DNA of 64,000 bases from Promethearchaeota archaeon (GTDB taxonomy: Archaea; Asgardarchaeota; Lokiarchaeia; Sigyniarchaeales; SOKP01): NCBI GenBank assembly GCA_048939995.1, contig JBHLOY010000004.1, positions 64,001 to 128,000 of the forward strand, in the 5' to 3' direction. Position 1 is the first letter of the stretch. Each line of letters begins with the position of its first letter. A program made the translations under genes and the position numbers. A model generated the notes under the pieces. That model ran no database searches. It saw nothing but the letters and a program-made list of their open reading frames with translations, and was not told the DNA's origin. Below are positions 36,182 to 46,340 of the stretch, one piece after another.

Positions 36182-36259
36182 TATGCCAAAAAATCAAAAA
36201 AAATAAGTAGATTTATTAATATTAATCAAGTAAGATATTAAAAAATAGTGTTAAGTAGA

Positions 36260-36976
36260 ATGGGTATTCGAAAAATAGAAGATGATATTGACTTAGAAGA
36301 AGCAATCAAGAAAAAAGCAGCAGAGCTAAGAATTAAAGACATCCAAGCAAAAGCAGAAACAGAAAAGTTTACCAAAGAAAGGTTAAGAGAATTAGCTAAA
36401 AAGCACGGGGTTATTTTAGCATTAACTCCTGAATTGAAGGATGAAGTAAAATATTTACAGAAAGAGTATAAGATTCCTACCTCCAAAATTATAACTGAAC
36501 AAATTACAGAGCATGATGTATTAAAAAAATCTTCTAAAGTAGATCATGAAAAGCTAGGGATGCTAGCATACCAAAGAGTTCTTATGCAGAAAGAAGAAAT
36601 TGGGGCCGGGATAATTCCAATTTCAGATGTTTTTGAGATGATACATACTGGAATTTTAAAAGGGAACGTTGAAATTAAAGATTTAAAAAAGGCTTTAAAA
36701 CTATTAAAGAAAAATCAAGTAATTGATGATGTTGAGGAATTAGATTCTGGTACAATTATGATAAGATTTTTTCCAGTTCAATATACTAGTGATCAAGTAA
36801 AAGTTATAGAAGTTGCCAAAGATAAGGGTTATGTGTCATTAGAAGATGTTTGTGTCGCTTTAAATTGGCCTCAAGACAGGGCTTTAAAAACTTTAAGTTC
36901 TCTTGAACAAACTGGTATTGCAAAGTTTAGAGAATCTCTTTTAAAGGGTAAACAATGGTACTTTCCATCAATATAA
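36260..36976 (+). CDS. ESCRT-II Vps22/Vps36-like (EAP30 domain) protein
   Basis: MGIRKIE N-terminus and tandem winged helices ('GIIPISDV..DLKKALKLL', 'LNWPQDRALKTL..L..GI..QWYFP'); ESCRT locus context. Confidence 0.85.
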   Translation: MGIRKIEDDIDLEEAIKKKAAELRIKDIQAKAETEKFTKERLRELAKKHGVILALTPELKDEVKYLQKEYKIPTSKIITEQITEHDVLKKSSKVDHEKLGMLAYQRVLMQKEEIGAGIIPISDVFEMIHTGILKGNVEIKDLKKALKLLKKNQVIDDVEELDSGTIMIRFFPVQYTSDQVKVIEVAKDKGYVSLEDVCVALNWPQDRALKTLSSLEQTGIAKFRESLLKGKQWYFPSI

Positions 36977-36980
36977 TATT

Positions 36981-37877
36981 TTACTCTACCTTAATTTTGA
37001 AGGAAATTTGCCCATCCTCGGATTTAATTATTCTGCCACGTTCATTTTTTTCTAGTCGTTTGAAAATTTCAAGTAAATCTTCTTTTGGTAGGTTGCTAAA
37101 GGCTCTATTAGATTCTCTGATCTCAAATATCAAAATAGGTTCTAGTGGTGAAATCTCCATTGCCCATTCATAAATCTCCTCGGCCCAATTATCAAGAGTT
37201 TTCCAATATATCCTTAGTTTCTCTTTACTTTTTGAAAGCCATTCTGCCTGTTTTTTATCTACTAATTCCTGGGCAATTATTTCTAATGCTGTATTTCTAT
37301 CCTCAAATTTAGAAAATGGTTTTTCTGATTCTAATTTTCTTAAATATAAAATATGAAGGATTGCATATCTTGCATAATCAAAAAGGACCTTTGACCATTC
37401 ACTCTTCCATGATTCAAAATCTTTAAGATCAATTTTTTTATTAGGGATAGAGTACATGAATATATACCTTTTTTCTTCAAGCCACGGATAATCATTAAGT
37501 AATAACTCATAAGTGGAGACCTCTTTAGCAATAACACCCTCTTCTCCAACTAATTCTAATTCTATACTTTTAAGTTCCTTCTCTATTTGAGCAGAATGTT
37601 GCTTATATGCTTCTAAATCCACGTCTCCTAATGTACTTGTTAGAAAGTCCTCAATTTTGTCTAAGCGAGTTTCAATATTTTCTTCTATTGGCTTCTCAGC
37701 AATCTCAGAAGATATTTCTCCTTCAACAATATTCTCTTCTTGAGGTTTGTCCAACTCTCTTTGTCTTTTTAATTCTTTTAAACGGACTAATTCTTTCCTT
37801 AAATCTTCTAAATCTATCTCAGATTTTTCCTCAATTTCTTCCATAAGGTCTTTAGGTTTTTCTCTTTGTTCTTCCAT
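36981..37877 (-). CDS. vps25: ESCRT-II Vps25-like protein with long acidic N-terminal extension
   Basis: 'W..EWSKVLFDY', 'AEW....K..IYWKTLDNWAEEIYEWA' and 'L.K..RG.I' Vps25 winged-helix motifs; starts 1 nt after the vps4 stop. Confidence 0.85.
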   Translation of the reverse strand: MEEQREKPKDLMEEIEEKSEIDLEDLRKELVRLKELKRQRELDKPQEENIVEGEISSEIAEKPIEENIETRLDKIEDFLTSTLGDVDLEAYKQHSAQIEKELKSIELELVGEEGVIAKEVSTYELLLNDYPWLEEKRYIFMYSIPNKKIDLKDFESWKSEWSKVLFDYARYAILHILYLRKLESEKPFSKFEDRNTALEIIAQELVDKKQAEWLSKSKEKLRIYWKTLDNWAEEIYEWAMEISPLEPILIFEIRESNRAFSNLPKEDLLEIFKRLEKNERGRIIKSEDGQISFKIKVE

Positions 37878-37878
37878 A

Positions 37879-39096
37879 CTAAAATTCTCCGAATTCCTCA
37901 GCCCATTGTTGATATTTTTTCAATTCAGATTTAGTTGTCATTGGTTTTATTTTCTTAATTGTTTTCAAAAAATCTTTTAGGTTTATATCTCTCACAACTA
38001 CTTCTTTATCTGGATCTTCTAATAATCCTCCCATATCTAATTCCCTTACAGGAATCATAATTACTTCACGACATATATTAGATATGTCCCGGCCTGAGTA
38101 GCTGTCAGTACGAACAGCTAATTCAATATAATCTTCTTCTGTTAAGGCTGAATTTACTCCTGAAGTATGAATTTTAAAGATCCCTACTCTTGCCGCTTGA
38201 TCTGGAAGTGGGACATATACCTTCTTTTCAAATCTACTTAACATTGCTATATCTATATCCCATGGTCGGTTGGTAGCTCCCAGTACGAGCATTGGTCTAT
38301 CATGAGTTGATTTAACTCCTTGAATTTCTTGTAATAGCTGTGTTTTAACTCTTCTTTCACCCCCGCCTTCATGACCACTACCTCTAGTTGTGGCTACAGA
38401 ATCGATTTCATCCATAAAAATCAGACTTGGGGCTCTAGCACGAGCTAATTTGAATAGAGACGAGATTAATTTTTCGCTTTCGCCTAACCATTTACTTAAT
38501 AAGTCTGCAGATGAAACACTGAAAAAAGTTGCCTTGCATTCAGTAGCTGCAGCTTTTGCTAATAAAGTTTTTCCACACCCGGGGGGTCCAAATAGTAAAA
38601 TTCCTGACCATGGCTTTCTAGCGCCTGTAAATAAGTCAGGTTTCATGATTGGCAATACTATCGCTTCTCTTACTGCTTGTTTACAATCACCCAAGCCTGC
38701 AATTTCATTCCATTTAACATTAGGAGATTCTGTCAAGATTGTATCCGAAATTGAATCCATTAATTCTTGCTCTTCAGTGGATAAACCTCCAATTTCCGGT
38801 TTTGGTTCTCCTTCATTTGGTTCGCTGGGAGTTGATTTTGGACGAGATCTCCGAACTCGTGGACCACTTAGATGTTCTTTAAGAACTTGACCTCTAGTCA
38901 TATACTGTTCTATCTGATCTTTACATCTTCTTATCATTATTGGATTTTTATTGTATTTAATAAATTGAATAAGTATCTCCGCTGCTCTAAAATACTTATT
39001 CATTGCTTGGTGGAGATGACCTTTTTGGTCTAATTCAATTGCTTTATTTGCTTCCTCAACAGCATACTGATATAGTTTCGACTCAACTGACGAGAT
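37879..39096 (-). CDS. vps4: Vps4 AAA+ ATPase with N-terminal MIT domain
   Basis: PNVKWNEIAGL, Walker A GPPGCGKT, SKWLGESEK, Walker B FMDEID and ATNRPW. MIT helix 1 (YQYAVEEANKAIELDQKG) lies upstream of the track ATG (39003), giving a probable ATC start at 39096. Confidence 0.95.
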   Translation of the reverse strand: MSSVESKLYQYAVEEANKAIELDQKGHLHQAMNKYFRAAEILIQFIKYNKNPIMIRRCKDQIEQYMTRGQVLKEHLSGPRVRRSRPKSTPSEPNEGEPKPEIGGLSTEEQELMDSISDTILTESPNVKWNEIAGLGDCKQAVREAIVLPIMKPDLFTGARKPWSGILLFGPPGCGKTLLAKAAATECKATFFSVSSADLLSKWLGESEKLISSLFKLARARAPSLIFMDEIDSVATTRGSGHEGGGERRVKTQLLQEIQGVKSTHDRPMLVLGATNRPWDIDIAMLSRFEKKVYVPLPDQAARVGIFKIHTSGVNSALTEEDYIELAVRTDSYSGRDISNICREVIMIPVRELDMGGLLEDPDKEVVVRDINLKDFLKTIKKIKPMTTKSELKKYQQWAEEFGEF

Positions 39097-39354: not shown

Positions 39355-39981
39355 ATGGGTTTTCTTAAAGATTTAAGTGGTTGGCTTTCTGGTGGAAGGA
39401 AAAAGGACACTGTACGCTCTGCAACAGTTAAATTAAAAGTTTTTAATAAACGATTAATGAGACAAACTAAAAAAATGGAAATGTCAGCGAAACTAGCAAG
39501 AGATAAAGCTGTCAAGCTTCGAAAGGAAGGTGATATGCAAGGATCAGAATTCCATGCTCGTAACTTTCTCCAAGTAAAAAAACAGAGCCGTGCAATAGAC
39601 CTCTTCCGAACAAACCTCGAAGGGATGGTCTTTAAATTAGAACAAGCTAGTGCGGTAAAAGACGTAGCTGAAATTATGCGAGGAATTGCGATGAGTCTTG
39701 GTGCGCTAAAAAATTCATTATCTATCCCACAAATTACAGAACTAATGACTCAAATTGGAGTAGATATTGAAGATTTTAACGTAACAGAAGAAATTACATC
39801 TGACGGAATAAATGATATGATGGTTGATACCGCTGTAACTGATAGTGATGTAAAAGAAGTGTTAGGTGAGATCGATGCGGAGATTGGAGCAGAAATTGGT
39901 GGAGCCTTACCTTCTGTAGAACCTGACGGAAAAATTAAGGAATTAGAAGAAGAACTTAATAAGTTAAAGTCAAGAGATTAA
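39355..39981 (+). CDS. ESCRT-III Vps2/24/46-like (Snf7 domain) protein
   Basis: Amphipathic MGFLKDLSGWL N-terminus, basic helical hairpin, acidic C-half and C-terminal MIM1-like ELEEELNKLK; divergent from vps4. Confidence 0.92.
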   Translation: MGFLKDLSGWLSGGRKKDTVRSATVKLKVFNKRLMRQTKKMEMSAKLARDKAVKLRKEGDMQGSEFHARNFLQVKKQSRAIDLFRTNLEGMVFKLEQASAVKDVAEIMRGIAMSLGALKNSLSIPQITELMTQIGVDIEDFNVTEEITSDGINDMMVDTAVTDSDVKEVLGEIDAEIGAEIGGALPSVEPDGKIKELEEELNKLKSRD

Positions 39982-41240: not shown

Positions 41241-41765
41241 ATGGAAGATACCAAGTATAAAGTATGTATATTTGGAGATGCAGCAGTAGGGAAAACTACA
41301 CTAACACACAGATATCTTTCCGGTGTTTTTAAAGAATCCTACAAATTAACTATAGGTATGGATTTTTATGTAAAGAAGCTTGAATTTAATGGCAATAAGA
41401 TTACTCTTCACATATGGGATTTTGCAGGAGAAGAGAAGTTTAGATTTTTATTACCCAGTACCGTAGTTGGTGCACATGGAACTATCTTCATGTATGATAT
41501 CACACGATATAATACGTTAAACAATTTAACAGACTGGCTTTCAGTATATGATAATTCTATGAGTTTGCTAACTCATAATCAAATTGTGCCTAAGATCTTG
41601 ATAGGTAGTAAATTAGATCTCAAAGAGAATAGGACAGTCTCTCAAGAAGAAGCTTATAATTTTGCTAAAGAAAAAAATTTCTTAGAATATTTAGAATGTT
41701 CTTCTAAAACTGGAGAAAATGTAGATCTAATATTTGAGAAAATTAGTCAGATTATGGTGAAATAA
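41241..41765 (+). CDS. Rab-like small GTPase
   Basis: GDAAVGKT, TIGMDF, IWDFAGEEKF, YDIT, SKLD and CSSKTG motifs; no C-terminal prenylation cysteines. Confidence 0.95.
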   Translation: MEDTKYKVCIFGDAAVGKTTLTHRYLSGVFKESYKLTIGMDFYVKKLEFNGNKITLHIWDFAGEEKFRFLLPSTVVGAHGTIFMYDITRYNTLNNLTDWLSVYDNSMSLLTHNQIVPKILIGSKLDLKENRTVSQEEAYNFAKEKNFLEYLECSSKTGENVDLIFEKISQIMVK

Positions 41766-41767
41766 AT

Positions 41768-42631
41768 ATGAAGAATAGTAAATATAAGCGTGCACTATTG
41801 TTCTTTTTGGTTTATTGTTTATTTTGGATCGGAATATCTATAGCGTTATCTTTAATTATTGGAAGGAGTGACGATCTAACTAAATTAATTCCTATTTCTG
41901 ATATGGGATTAGAAACAGCTTTACTTTCTATCCTCCTATTGCCAATTTCTTCACTACTAGGCTTATTTGTAGGGGGATATGCAATTTCACCCCTTTTCCT
42001 CTATATTCACAAAAAAATCTTTAAATCTAAAATGGAATATGGGATTTATGATAAGCCAGAATTCCCTAAATTTAAATATTTCTCTTCTGGTTTATTCTCT
42101 GCATTAATGGCTATAAATTTTTCACTATTCTTATTAACACCTGAAATTGTAACCTTTTCAAGAGGAAATATTCCTACAAGTCAGGCAGATTATGCCACCA
42201 CTTTTGTTGTATTATTAGTAATAACTTTTTTTCTAGCGACAATACTTTTCGCTACTACTTGGTTTTTAAGCGATTCAGGTATACTGTATTCAAATAAAAA
42301 TGCGTTAGATAAGACTCCAAATCCCCCAGAAGTGCGTTCGATAGGACGTTGGTATGGACAATTTCTAAAAGGTTATGCTGGAGTTTCAGTTGTATTTTCT
42401 TATTTTGAATTTATTACTATATTTTTAGTTGAAACTGCGAGTCTAACAAGTTTATTTTCTATTTTATTAGCAATTTTCATTCCATTCCCTTTTTTTATGG
42501 TCCTCCCTTTTATTCCAACATTAATAGTCTCAGATTTACTAAAAAACCATCGAACTGAATATATTAGAAGATATGCAAGCAAGTTAGGTATAATAAAATC
42601 CGTTGAAATAACTTTTGAATTAAGAGATTAA
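41768..42631 (+). CDS. Multipass hypothetical membrane protein
   Basis: About 6 TM helices; starts 2 nt after the GTPase stop. Confidence 0.8.
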   Translation: MKNSKYKRALLFFLVYCLFWIGISIALSLIIGRSDDLTKLIPISDMGLETALLSILLLPISSLLGLFVGGYAISPLFLYIHKKIFKSKMEYGIYDKPEFPKFKYFSSGLFSALMAINFSLFLLTPEIVTFSRGNIPTSQADYATTFVVLLVITFFLATILFATTWFLSDSGILYSNKNALDKTPNPPEVRSIGRWYGQFLKGYAGVSVVFSYFEFITIFLVETASLTSLFSILLAIFIPFPFFMVLPFIPTLIVSDLLKNHRTEYIRRYASKLGIIKSVEITFELRD

Positions 42632-42700: not shown

Positions 42701-44194
42701 TTATATATGAATAATTGGTTTCTTAATTTTCATCTTTTTACTTTCTTTTAAAATTGAGTGTCGATTTTCTATAAATGCGGTAATAAAAGACTTTCCTACT
42801 AATTGAGTGCATTTTATTATAAACTCTTCCTTTTCAATCTCGTTCTCGTTATATTGAGTAAGAATACTTACTATTTTCTTGAAATCAATACTAAGATTTT
42901 TCCTTAGAAATTTTTCGATATCTCCTATTTGATCTAATAATGATACTAATTGTTCTGAATAATCTCGAATGAGTTCATTTGTGCTTTTTAATTCGATTAA
43001 TTTCATGTTTATATCCTTTAAGATTTCGTTTAAAACCCACTCTCTTCTTCCCTCCGCCTTAATAAATACTTTATTTAAATTTTCTGAAATTCTTTGGATT
43101 TTAATATTTAAAGAAATATCTTCAGAATCATCCTTTAATTCAGCAAAACCATATAAATGATTTAAGCCCTTATCACTGATTAAAGGATCTGATCTTTTTT
43201 TTACTTTTTTTTTAGGAGTTTGGATATCTTTCAATCCCGGAACGAAAAAATTATTTTCCTGCAAAATCAACCCCATTTTTAACCCTAAATCTTTTGAAGT
43301 TATATCAGTATCAAAAATTAACGACTTTTCTGTTGTTTCTGGATTTAATTCTTTGAAATCTGTTTCCGTAATCCACTTTGGAACTAAAAATTTAGTAAAT
43401 TCTCTTAGAGGTTCAATTTCTAACTTTTTTAATATCATTTGATAAATATCTTCAATCGTGGTATATGGATCACTTTCTTTAAATTGTATCCCTAGTTTAG
43501 TCGATAATAAGGCAGGAATATCATTTGGTTCAACAAATATAGGAATTAATTTCTTACCCAATTTTAAAGCTGAACGCCACTCCATTTTAACAGCTTCAGA
43601 GTAGAGTGAATTTTTTGAACAAAATAAAAGAACGACTTTACATTGTTTTAAATTATCATCCATATACTGATATATATCATCATGCATATCTGCTTCCCAA
43701 TATAATATTTCTTTAATTTCTGGATAACTAGATAATACTCGCGTGATTTTGGGGATTTGAAAAAAATCTGAATCTACTGTTGCATAACTGATAAAAATTA
43801 ATTCTCTATCAATTGGAAAAGATTTAATAAGTGCCGGCGCTCTGATGTGCTTAATCAATTTCTTCTTCCTTCTACTAAAAAATATAGAAAGCACTGTAAC
43901 TAATAAAACACTTAAAGGTTCGAAAAAAATATAGAAAATTATAGAGTAATATGACATTGGGGCCATGTAAGAAATATTGAGGTAAAAAATAAGCATAGCT
44001 AATAGTGGAATACCATAAAATAACAAAGGAATTATTATATATGCTACAAAGAAAACTATCCATGTAATTAAAATAGTATACTTATATTTCTGTTTAATTG
44101 AATTGATGACCATCAATATAATAAAAACTATAAAAGCATAATGAATGAGATCGAATGGAGAAACTGCAAAATCGGGAGTATATTGAAATATCAT
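42701..44194 (-). CDS. Membrane-anchored TIR-domain protein with a putative coatomer/adaptin appendage-platform C-terminal domain
   Basis: Three N-terminal TM helices; TIR motifs IFISYA..D, CKVVLLFCSKNS..S..V..EW..A and LIPIF. C-terminal similarity is judged by eye. Confidence 0.8.
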   Translation of the reverse strand: MIFQYTPDFAVSPFDLIHYAFIVFIILMVINSIKQKYKYTILITWIVFFVAYIIIPLLFYGIPLLAMLIFYLNISYMAPMSYYSIIFYIFFEPLSVLLVTVLSIFFSRRKKKLIKHIRAPALIKSFPIDRELIFISYATVDSDFFQIPKITRVLSSYPEIKEILYWEADMHDDIYQYMDDNLKQCKVVLLFCSKNSLYSEAVKMEWRSALKLGKKLIPIFVEPNDIPALLSTKLGIQFKESDPYTTIEDIYQMILKKLEIEPLREFTKFLVPKWITETDFKELNPETTEKSLIFDTDITSKDLGLKMGLILQENNFFVPGLKDIQTPKKKVKKRSDPLISDKGLNHLYGFAELKDDSEDISLNIKIQRISENLNKVFIKAEGRREWVLNEILKDINMKLIELKSTNELIRDYSEQLVSLLDQIGDIEKFLRKNLSIDFKKIVSILTQYNENEIEKEEFIIKCTQLVGKSFITAFIENRHSILKESKKMKIKKPIIHI

Positions 44195-45497: not shown

Positions 45498-46340
45498 TTA
45501 TAAGGTTCCAAGAAAATTGGAAATACCTGATGTTTTTGGAATTTGTACCTCAAAATAATTTTCTACAATTTCATAAAGAAAATCCAAATACGGTATAGCT
45601 ATCTTTATATTATGTTTCTTCTCTAACTCAGTAATTAACTTCTTAGAATAGAGTCTTTCATTTTCTTTCAGGTTATGAATGAATTCTACAATCGTTTTTG
45701 AGAGCTGAAATGCCTTTTGAATTTCATTCTTCAAAATGATCAAGCTTGTCATTGGATCATATTCATTTAAAAACTTTTGAATTATCGTTTTCTCGACATT
45801 TATTTTCTTAGTTTGGAGCTTACCTTCAAAATCGGTAATAATTTCTCGACCTTTAAAGGCAAAATGATTGCCATATGAGCTCTTATCATATTGAGCCTCA
45901 CTAATTAAAATTAAATCTATACCAAAAGAATTTTCAGTAAGATAATGAAAAAAATTTGAAATTTGATTAAATAAATATTGTTGATTAGAAATTAATACTA
46001 TTTTTTTTTTAAAGATCATAGCTTTTAGAACATAGCCCAATAAAGAGGCAGTTAAATTTAACTTAATCAAATCTATGTCAAATAGTTTTGATAATTCACT
46101 TTTTTTTTCAACAGTTTCTTCAGGCATAGTACTTGGAAGTTCAATTTGAAAATCTGCTATGAAAGCATCTCTAACAGCAAAATTTTTATCAACATATGCC
46201 ACAAAAGAATGTTCACAAACTATACCCTCAGCGACGTTTACAGCAAAAAGCCCTTTAGAAGCTTTTTTGACTTCATCATCTGAAACCTCAACAAAATTAC
46301 TTTTTGAACAAGCAGGACATCGAATTTGTATTTTAACCAT
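45498..46340 (-). CDS. Hypothetical protein with N-terminal zinc ribbon and possible DENN-like central region
   Basis: CPAC...CEHSF N-terminus; central 'MIFKKKIVLIS....L.....F..L'. Confidence 0.65.
   Translation of the reverse strand: MVKIQIRCPACSKSNFVEVSDDEVKKASKGLFAVNVAEGIVCEHSFVAYVDKNFAVRDAFIADFQIELPSTMPEETVEKKSELSKLFDIDLIKLNLTASLLGYVLKAMIFKKKIVLISNQQYLFNQISNFFHYLTENSFGIDLILISEAQYDKSSYGNHFAFKGREIITDFEGKLQTKKINVEKTIIQKFLNEYDPMTSLIILKNEIQKAFQLSKTIVEFIHNLKENERLYSKKLITELEKKHNIKIAIPYLDFLYEIVENYFEVQIPKTSGISNFLGTL

Follow-up and report, generated by a model that had tools for sequence, protein, structure and literature searches.

A membrane-anchored TIR protein with an appendage-platform-like domain in a Promethearchaeota archaeon

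The gene, its membrane anchor and its TIR domain

The stretch of DNA analysed here, referred to as the window, comprises 64,000 nucleotides from a Promethearchaeota archaeon of the order Sigyniarchaeales (contig JBHLOY010000004.1, positions 64,001 to 128,000) and is AT-rich, with about 30% GC. On its reverse strand, at 42701-44194, the list of open reading frames and their translations gives a gene for a protein of 497 amino acids (stop codon included in the coordinates), designated P0001. Its named relatives are all annotated as metagenome-assembled genomes (MAGs) of Promethearchaeota, Lokiarchaeota, Hodarchaeota, Hermodarchaeota or Helarchaeota, and its start codon is considered sound because orthologues with 61-72% identity begin alike (MIFQ/MTYQ). 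A first-pass annotation of the window had read the protein as transmembrane helices followed by a TIR domain that retains its glutamate and then by an appendage-platform-like domain. This order is confirmed by hydropathy, by Pfam and by an AlphaFold2 fold combined with structure search, and the limits given for the domains were right within about 15 nucleotides for the platform and about 50 nucleotides for the TIR domain.

The N-terminal membrane anchor (residues 17-107, 43874-44146, reverse strand) is made of three or four hydrophobic helices according to hydropathy, with hydrophobic stretches at about residues 17-33, 41-76 (one or two helices) and 83-107, inside Kyte-Doolittle segments of 8-35, 37-76 and 83-108. 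The same analysis indicates loops only a few residues long and no ectodomain. Stretches rich in lysine and arginine occur at residues 34-40 and 108-125, and since the latter directly follows the anchor, the positive-inside rule places the remainder of the protein in the cytoplasm. Among 21 full-length orthologues (alignment A1) the anchor region is weakly conserved.

The TIR domain (residues 133-242, 43469-43798, reverse strand) matches Pfam TIR_2 (PF13676) at E 6.7e-15 and 56.1 bits, against a cut-off of 28, while a weaker match to ThsB_TIR (25.8 bits) overlaps the same stretch. The glutamate expected in the motif SEAVKMEW is indeed present: the codon of the putative catalytic Glu205 reads GAG in the DNA (43580-43582, reverse strand), and the residue is invariant in the 21 full-length orthologues as well as in 26 TIR domains of the same subfamily taken from other architectures in Asgard MAGs (P0029-P0054, alignment A6). 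About 30 further positions are invariant across the latter, which share 52-91% pairwise identity with P0001 and belong, among others, to proteins with an N-terminal TIR and leucine-rich repeats (LRR), proteins with TPR and a C-terminal TIR, a 296-aa family, and proteins in which WD40 or SBP/NosD/PBP domains precede the TIR and the C-terminal region described below. The conservation of this TIR subtype across LRR, TPR, WD40, SBP, transmembrane and 296-aa designs is unusually strong for a shuffled domain. The genome itself encodes seven TIR_2 proteins, all of them multidomain.

In regard to the possible enzymatic nature of this domain, a search of the PDB with the TIR-only profile of A6 retrieved a bacterial SEFIR domain at E 2e-4 and, weakly, SARM1 and TIR-1. 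The profile segment 'SEAVKMEW..ALK..K.IIPIF' was aligned to 'EDWVHKELKCAF' of Caenorhabditis elegans TIR-1 and to SARM1, so that Glu205 pairs with the glutamate of 'WVHKEI' in SARM1 and of 'WVHKEL' in TIR-1, in weak alignments (E 0.6-1.3). In SARM1 this motif glutamate is the catalytic E642. With E-values this weak, the placement of Glu205 on the SARM1/TIR-1 motif glutamate is a pointer rather than a proof.

The appendage-type platform and the helical tail

Residues 255-497, which follow the TIR domain and are called the module below, found no match in Pfam or NCBIfam. Their AlphaFold2 model, built from a 51-sequence alignment (A2), has a mean predicted local distance difference test (pLDDT) value of 85.8 and a predicted template-modelling score of 0.77, and its sole disordered part is a lysine-rich loop at model residues 71-88 (about residues 325-342). 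The first part of the module, residues 264-404 (42983-43405, reverse strand), is modelled as an appendage-platform (TBP-like) domain with pLDDT above 90 outside the loop. In a Foldseek search of the PDB, the top matches were the COPI leaf and the appendages of beta2-adaptin, gamma-COP and alpha-adaptin, at E 5e-4 to 1e-2. Alignment of these candidates with VIA-align gave Z 13.9 for COPI-leaf chain 9qpq_H (residues 823-953; 125 residues aligned, root-mean-square deviation 2.9), 13.2 for alpha-adaptin 821-938, 12.6 for beta2-adaptin 820-937 and 12.4 for gamma-COP 759-874; these four alignments cover 109-125 residues with deviations of 2.4-3.2, and taken with the scan below the appendage matches have Z of 11-14 and deviations of 2.4-3.4 A over about 110-125 residues. 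The BBS7 platform scores Z 9.2-9.4. A scan of 48,161 PDB chain representatives, independent of Foldseek, gave the same order of matches and placed appendage platforms in all of its first five rows (Z 13.0-10.6). Searches by shape in the ESM Atlas retrieved hypothetical proteins of Thor- and Promethearchaeota, one cluster of them with HEAT repeats, and further clusters named as gamma-COP, AP-3 beta and 'coatomer gamma appendage platform'.

In sequence, P0001 has no match to Pfam Coatomer_b_Cpla, Alpha_adaptin_C or B2-adapt-app_C, and the best-scoring relative reaches 22.3 bits against a cut-off of 32.7. Below the threshold, six of the 51 family members match Coatomer_b_Cpla at E of 1 or less, with best values of 2e-4 and 1.3e-4. 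Searches of PDB sequences with P0001, A1 and A2 found no appendage or TIR match at useful E-values, and feature searches of the ESM Atlas with the module and with its paralogue P0085 gave no usable match. A two-copy complex prediction of the module, bearing on self-association, scored 0.01 and weighs neither way.

It could be argued that residues 264-404 are nothing more specific than a TBP/helix-grip or KA1-type fold, perhaps with a lipid-binding or autoinhibitory role, and that their likeness to coat appendages is convergent and therefore uninformative. The next fold class, formed by KA1, AMPK and CIPK domains, follows with Z of 9-10.7, only about 2.5-3 under the appendage scores; the identity to solved platforms is 10-17%, and Pfam, as said, assigns no appendage domain to P0001. 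Nevertheless, we hold such convergence to be very unlikely. KA1-type domains align over 88-93 residues and lack the first beta-alpha unit, which is included in the longer appendage alignments, and the first five places of the unbiased scan all go to appendage platforms. In addition, relatives of P0001 combine the sub-threshold Coatomer_b_Cpla matches with a GAE-like sandwich immediately upstream, which is the arrangement of an ear, and gamma-COP and AP-3 beta are among the Atlas neighbours. Taken together, the Foldseek, VIA-align and whole-PDB results and the sub-threshold Coatomer_b_Cpla matches indicate that residues 264-404, as modelled, adopt the appendage platform fold, and homology to appendage platforms is likely. 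The first-pass annotation had proposed this fold from the parallel with alpha-adaptin and beta-COP platform subdomains, and would have been refuted by a model that lacked the platform; the model shows it.

The remainder of the module (residues 405-497, 42704-42982, reverse strand) is predicted as a helical tail, made of a long helical hairpin and a small three-helix end resembling RST/alpha-alpha-hub domains. Residues 398-497 folded alone gave the same picture, a long hairpin and three short helices, with pLDDT 84.7. Against Pfam RST, the C-terminal stretch of P0001 scores 16.3 bits and the whole protein 15.1 bits, under the cut-off of 22.7, which is exceeded by the tail-only relatives P0111 (29.0 bits) and P0121 (24.1 bits). 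Among the 51 module members, RST matches 27, in the last ~45 residues of the tail, and BLOC1_2 matches 28, over the hairpin; the BLOC1_2 matches may reflect coiled-coil composition. Structural comparison of the tail with VIA-align gave a best Z of 5.3, with PYD, CARD and DD domains as the majority among the 50 best rows, and Z 4.2-4.3 over 61 residues for the RST domains of TAF4 and RCD1. For the predicted model, such values are within the range expected by chance for small helical bundles, and Foldseek found nothing significant for it (E 2.6 or worse). The RST likeness is better supported by sequence, and a death-fold tail is kept as a lead only.

A Vps28 C-terminal domain (Vps28-C) was likewise considered for the tail and dropped, as hhalign gave 0.8% probability against the genome's own Vps28 and 0.3% when alignment A3 was compared with a 24-sequence alignment of Asgard Vps28 (A5). 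There is no Vps28 match in the top Pfam tallies for the 51 module members. Vps28-C is also missing from the 50 best structural rows for the tail model, although absence from that list is not excluding. A comparison of the module with the C-terminus of P0138, another protein of the same genome, gave 0.1%, a weak test as the template was a single sequence. P0138 itself (L005, C28:163431-163712) has at least 598 aa within a 796-aa open frame and contains wHTH/PCI repeats, an IG-like domain, a platform-like stretch and a Vps28-C match of 24.8 bits. It belongs to the 'appendage + Vps28-C' type known from Makarova et al., and a separate full Vps28 (213 aa) is encoded on contig C23.

Tails also occur without the platform, behind a TIR domain (P0126), LRR (P0120), a ParA-like ATPase (P0128), PCI (P0133) and a TAF9-like histone fold (P0111), and in being found with such varied partners the tail resembles shuffled adaptor domains. 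In P0111 (177 aa), the histone fold (TFIID-31kDa, 27.8 bits, barely under the cut-off) is fused to the RST-like tail (29 bits), a combination that recalls parts of TFIID.

The module family and its relation to known systems

An exhaustive HMMER search with residues 255-497 yielded 86 cluster representatives, proteins of 80 to 1828 aa that carry the module at the extreme C-terminus in nearly all cases. All named module-bearing proteins are from Asgard archaea, of Loki-type lineages in the genomes sampled. The front ends are sensor- or scaffold-like, including SBP_bac_5/NosD/Peripla_BP_6, WD40, SBBP propeller, TPR and PCI domains. Like the TIR domain, the module is a mobile cassette. A majority consensus of 56 full-length module proteins contains a conserved domain of ~110 aa directly before the platform, while farther upstream TPR (12 of 56), PCI (7 of 56) and NosD/beta-helix (6 of 56) are found, together with SBBP propellers and solute-binding domains. 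In the 35 pre-platform segments of TIR-less members, PTHB1_GAE matched 23 (best E 7e-5), GAE_BBS1 eight and AP3B1_C three, all under the cut-off, and a profile of the paralogues' GAE-like region (A7) had no significant match in the PDB. Judged from these matches, a GAE-like sandwich followed by the platform would give the TIR-less members a full 'ear'. P0001 has no GAE/IG beta-sandwich before its platform; the TIR domain occupies that place.

A maximum-likelihood tree built from the module places the 15 copies linked to a TIR to one side of a branch supported at 100/99; BLAST confirmed the TIR of P0062. Such a topology fits a single exchange between sandwich and TIR, the direction of which is not shown by an unrooted tree.

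Two further groups of relatives deserve mention. The TIR-less proteins P0058, P0067, P0072, P0077, P0085 and others (A4, A7) follow the order beta-propeller, TPR or PCI, then GAE-like sandwich, platform and helical tail, which is the order of BBS1/2/7/9. Proteins of 350-430 aa with only the platform half form tandem arrays of three (G087:C18:43513-47239; G140:C2:26085-30596) and are present in 24 of the 26 genomes of one family of the phylum (f7).

In eukaryotic coat adaptors, the appendage or 'ear' is the part that serves as interaction hub; the TIR domain belongs to the immune modules common to all domains of life. The platform of P0001 shares its fold with the ears of AP-2 alpha and beta2 and of COPI beta and gamma, and its family relatives share the GAE-type sandwich upstream. 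In contrast to the adaptin and COPI large subunits, which have an N-terminal HEAT/adaptin trunk and a flexible hinge, P0001 has a membrane anchor and no Adaptin_N match; it also differs from these ears in having a TIR domain in place of the beta-sandwich, an extra helical tail after the platform, and a sequence match that remains under the Pfam cut-offs. The similarity to the BBSome concerns the TIR-less paralogues, since BBS1/2/7/9 are built as beta-propeller, GAE, platform and helical domain, and the paralogue sandwich best matches PTHB1_GAE and GAE_BBS1. However, P0001 lacks both propeller and GAE, the paralogue sequence matches are under the Pfam cut-offs, and the relation is a resemblance rather than a shown homology; in our literature search, no publication connected the BBSome with Asgard archaea. 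In regard to RST/alpha-alpha-hub proteins such as RCD1 and TAF4, the end of the tail matches Pfam RST in relatives, while P0001 remains under the cut-off and death-fold domains score equally well.

Ear proteins of Asgard and other archaea have been described before. Eme et al. (2023) reported Alpha_adaptin_C and B2-adapt-app_C domains in Asgard archaea (PMC10307638), and Makarova et al. (2024) described Asgard multidomain proteins in which the adaptin appendage region is combined with Vps28-C, TPR, IG and PCI, linking appendages to archaeal ESCRT (endosomal sorting complex required for transport) loci (PMC10936438). The TIR-less paralogues fit the ear proteins of the latter study, with IG-like and TBP-like domains accompanied by TPR, PCI and IG. 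Compared with the proteins as these two papers describe them, P0001 differs by its TIR fusion and by a tail in which Vps28-C is not detectable, and the term 'TIR' occurs zero times in the main text of either paper. Compared with known TIR systems, namely Thoeris ThsB, 2TM/1TM-TIR, SPARTA TIR-APAZ and SARM1-type NADases, P0001 is similar in its TIR with the motif glutamate, its fusion to variable sensor or anchor regions, its patchy spread and the clustering of TIR genes, and differs in that no PADLOC model fits and that a ThsA-like or other effector partner is not seen in its vicinity. In the TIR and defence literature searched, the C-terminal appendage module was not found. The first-pass statement that this architecture is undescribed holds, within the papers searched, for the fusion of TIR and platform; it does not hold for Asgard appendage domains, which, like Asgard TIR proteins, were already known.

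Neighbourhood, proposed role and meaning

At lower window positions lies an ESCRT locus, as the first-pass annotation had noted, with genes for an EAP30/Vps22-like protein (36248-36976), Vps25 (36981-37877), Vps4 (37879-39003) and Snf7 (39355-39981), all within 36.2-40.0 kb. It is followed by a gene for a Ras/Rab-like GTPase (41241-41765) and by one for a 287-aa multi-pass membrane protein without an assigned family (41768-42631, forward strand), which is convergent with the TIR gene. On the other side, at 45498-46340 on the reverse strand, a 280-aa protein with an N-terminal zinc-ribbon-like start (CxxC...C/H) has no Pfam or PADLOC match; the window also encodes a PfkB kinase. ARAGORN found no tRNA gene between 40 and 48 kb.

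Such a setting invites the explanation that P0001 couples TIR signalling to membrane remodelling of ESCRT, Rab or coat-like type, its platform and tail docking onto ESCRT components, a mode suggested for Asgard 'appendage + Vps28-C' proteins. The gene is 2.7 kb from Snf7, 3.7 kb from Vps4 and 0.9 kb from the Ras-like GTPase gene, its platform has the fold of coat appendages, the genome has an appendage + Vps28-C-type protein (P0138), and appendage domains have been tied to archaeal ESCRT loci (PMC10936438). Against this, the adjacency is not shared by relatives: no ESCRT or Ras gene is present within 6-10 kb of the orthologues in a congeneric genome (72% identity to P0001) and in two other MAGs (loci L001 and L002), and the neighbours of the congeneric orthologue and of P0006 and P0020 are genes for thioesterase, enoyl-CoA hydratase, PFL, permease and NUDIX proteins. 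A tblastn search for the ESCRT/Rab synteny with 13 window proteins at L001, L002 and L006-L009 gave one match, a homologue of the 287-aa membrane protein with 39% identity (L006:11567-12469), 3.5 kb from the congeneric TIR orthologue. The tail shows 0.3% profile-profile probability to Asgard Vps28 and no Vps28 match in the top Pfam tallies of the 51 members. Finally, within the genus the module is found in four of 12 genomes, as a full module in three of those, this genome with its single copy included, and is missing from the eight others, which are 85-100% complete, while ESCRT is a core system. With an unconserved neighbourhood, a tail without likeness to Vps28-C and a module restricted to four of 12 congeneric genomes, a functional tie between P0001 and the ESCRT or Rab genes close to it lacks support, and the coupling explanation is rather improbable. 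The first-pass view of P0001 as a receptor that would couple immune-type signalling to vesicle coats is not supported either, and the protein has no ectodomain. How near a gene lies to ESCRT in one genome is thus a poor guide to its function.

Across the phylum, the module profile has matches in 35 of 151 genomes. At several orthologue loci a second TIR gene lies 2-7 kb away; its product at L001, with 1830 aa, is an SBP/NosD/PBP-TIR protein like the module-bearing P0055. With so patchy a spread, and with TIR paralogues close by in relatives, a role in conflict, defence or stress response is more to be expected than one in core membrane traffic. A 574-aa NUDIX protein (L002:11756-13480) is encoded directly beside the orthologue P0020 on three contigs, and may represent a link to NAD-derived nucleotides.

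Prokaryotic TIR domains tested so far are mostly NAD+-processing enzymes, and TIR enzymes are switched on by clustering of their TIR domains. By analogy, we regard P0001 as probably, although only by a modest measure of confidence, an accessory membrane-anchored protein of TIR signalling or defence type that uses a peptide-docking hub, with the TIR domain acting as an NAD+-processing enzyme or signal generator. According to this proposal, the platform and the tail would bind short peptide motifs of a partner, or be bound by one, as eukaryotic appendage platforms and alpha-alpha hubs do. Docking would concentrate P0001 at the membrane, the resulting clustering could bring TIR domains together, and the clustered TIR might then cleave NAD+ or make an NAD-derived signal, in analogy with other glutamate-bearing TIRs.

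Several observations weigh against this proposal. NADase activity is predicted from Glu205 and by analogy, the alignment to SARM1 is statistically weak (E 0.6-1.3), and the partner of platform and tail is hypothetical. TIR domains are also able to act as pure scaffolds. Among PADLOC models, only bSEFIR was matched, marginally (E 0.0013), with no stretch passing alone and no match among the neighbours, and the window genes beside P0001 include no evident effector gene and no SIR2, Macro or SLOG neighbour. The TIR and the module are, moreover, conserved across orders with 58% mean column identity, above many fast-evolving defence genes.

Alternatively, the TIR might be a non-enzymatic scaffold that keeps the glutamate for structural reasons. 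P0001 would in that case be an adaptor at the membrane from which TIR-TIR assemblies with the cell's other TIR proteins start, in the manner of TLR and MyD88. A TIR cassette 52-91% identical to that of P0001 over at least six architectures is what a common TIR-TIR interface would lead one to expect, the genome has seven TIR proteins to assemble with, and no effector or NAD-related gene is a neighbour in the window. We find this unlikely given that none of the 26 aligned TIRs departs from glutamate at the catalytic position, that enzymes predominate among the tested prokaryotic TIRs, and that the NUDIX gene beside one orthologue hints at nucleotide chemistry. The preferred reading of P0001 remains that of a membrane-anchored, putatively NAD+-processing TIR protein with a docking hub.

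This reading could be extended further, to a scenario we consider a long shot. The platform and the RST-like tail might serve a family of Asgard TIR enzymes and sensor-like scaffolds as a docking module of their own, through which all would be connected to a single signalling assembly close to the membrane. The TM-TIR protein would be the membrane-bound output of this network. Ear-type hubs might then have served archaeal immune or stress signalling before they were recruited into eukaryotic vesicle coats and the BBSome, or alongside that recruitment.

Regardless of such scenarios, a conserved family with all its named members in Asgard archaea joins what is predicted to be an ear platform with a TIR domain, and the TIR stands exactly at the usual position of the sandwich. 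Archaeal forerunners of ears bear on the origin of the endomembrane system, and P0001 offers a concrete, expressible protein for asking what archaeal ear platforms bind and whether Asgard TIRs are enzymes.

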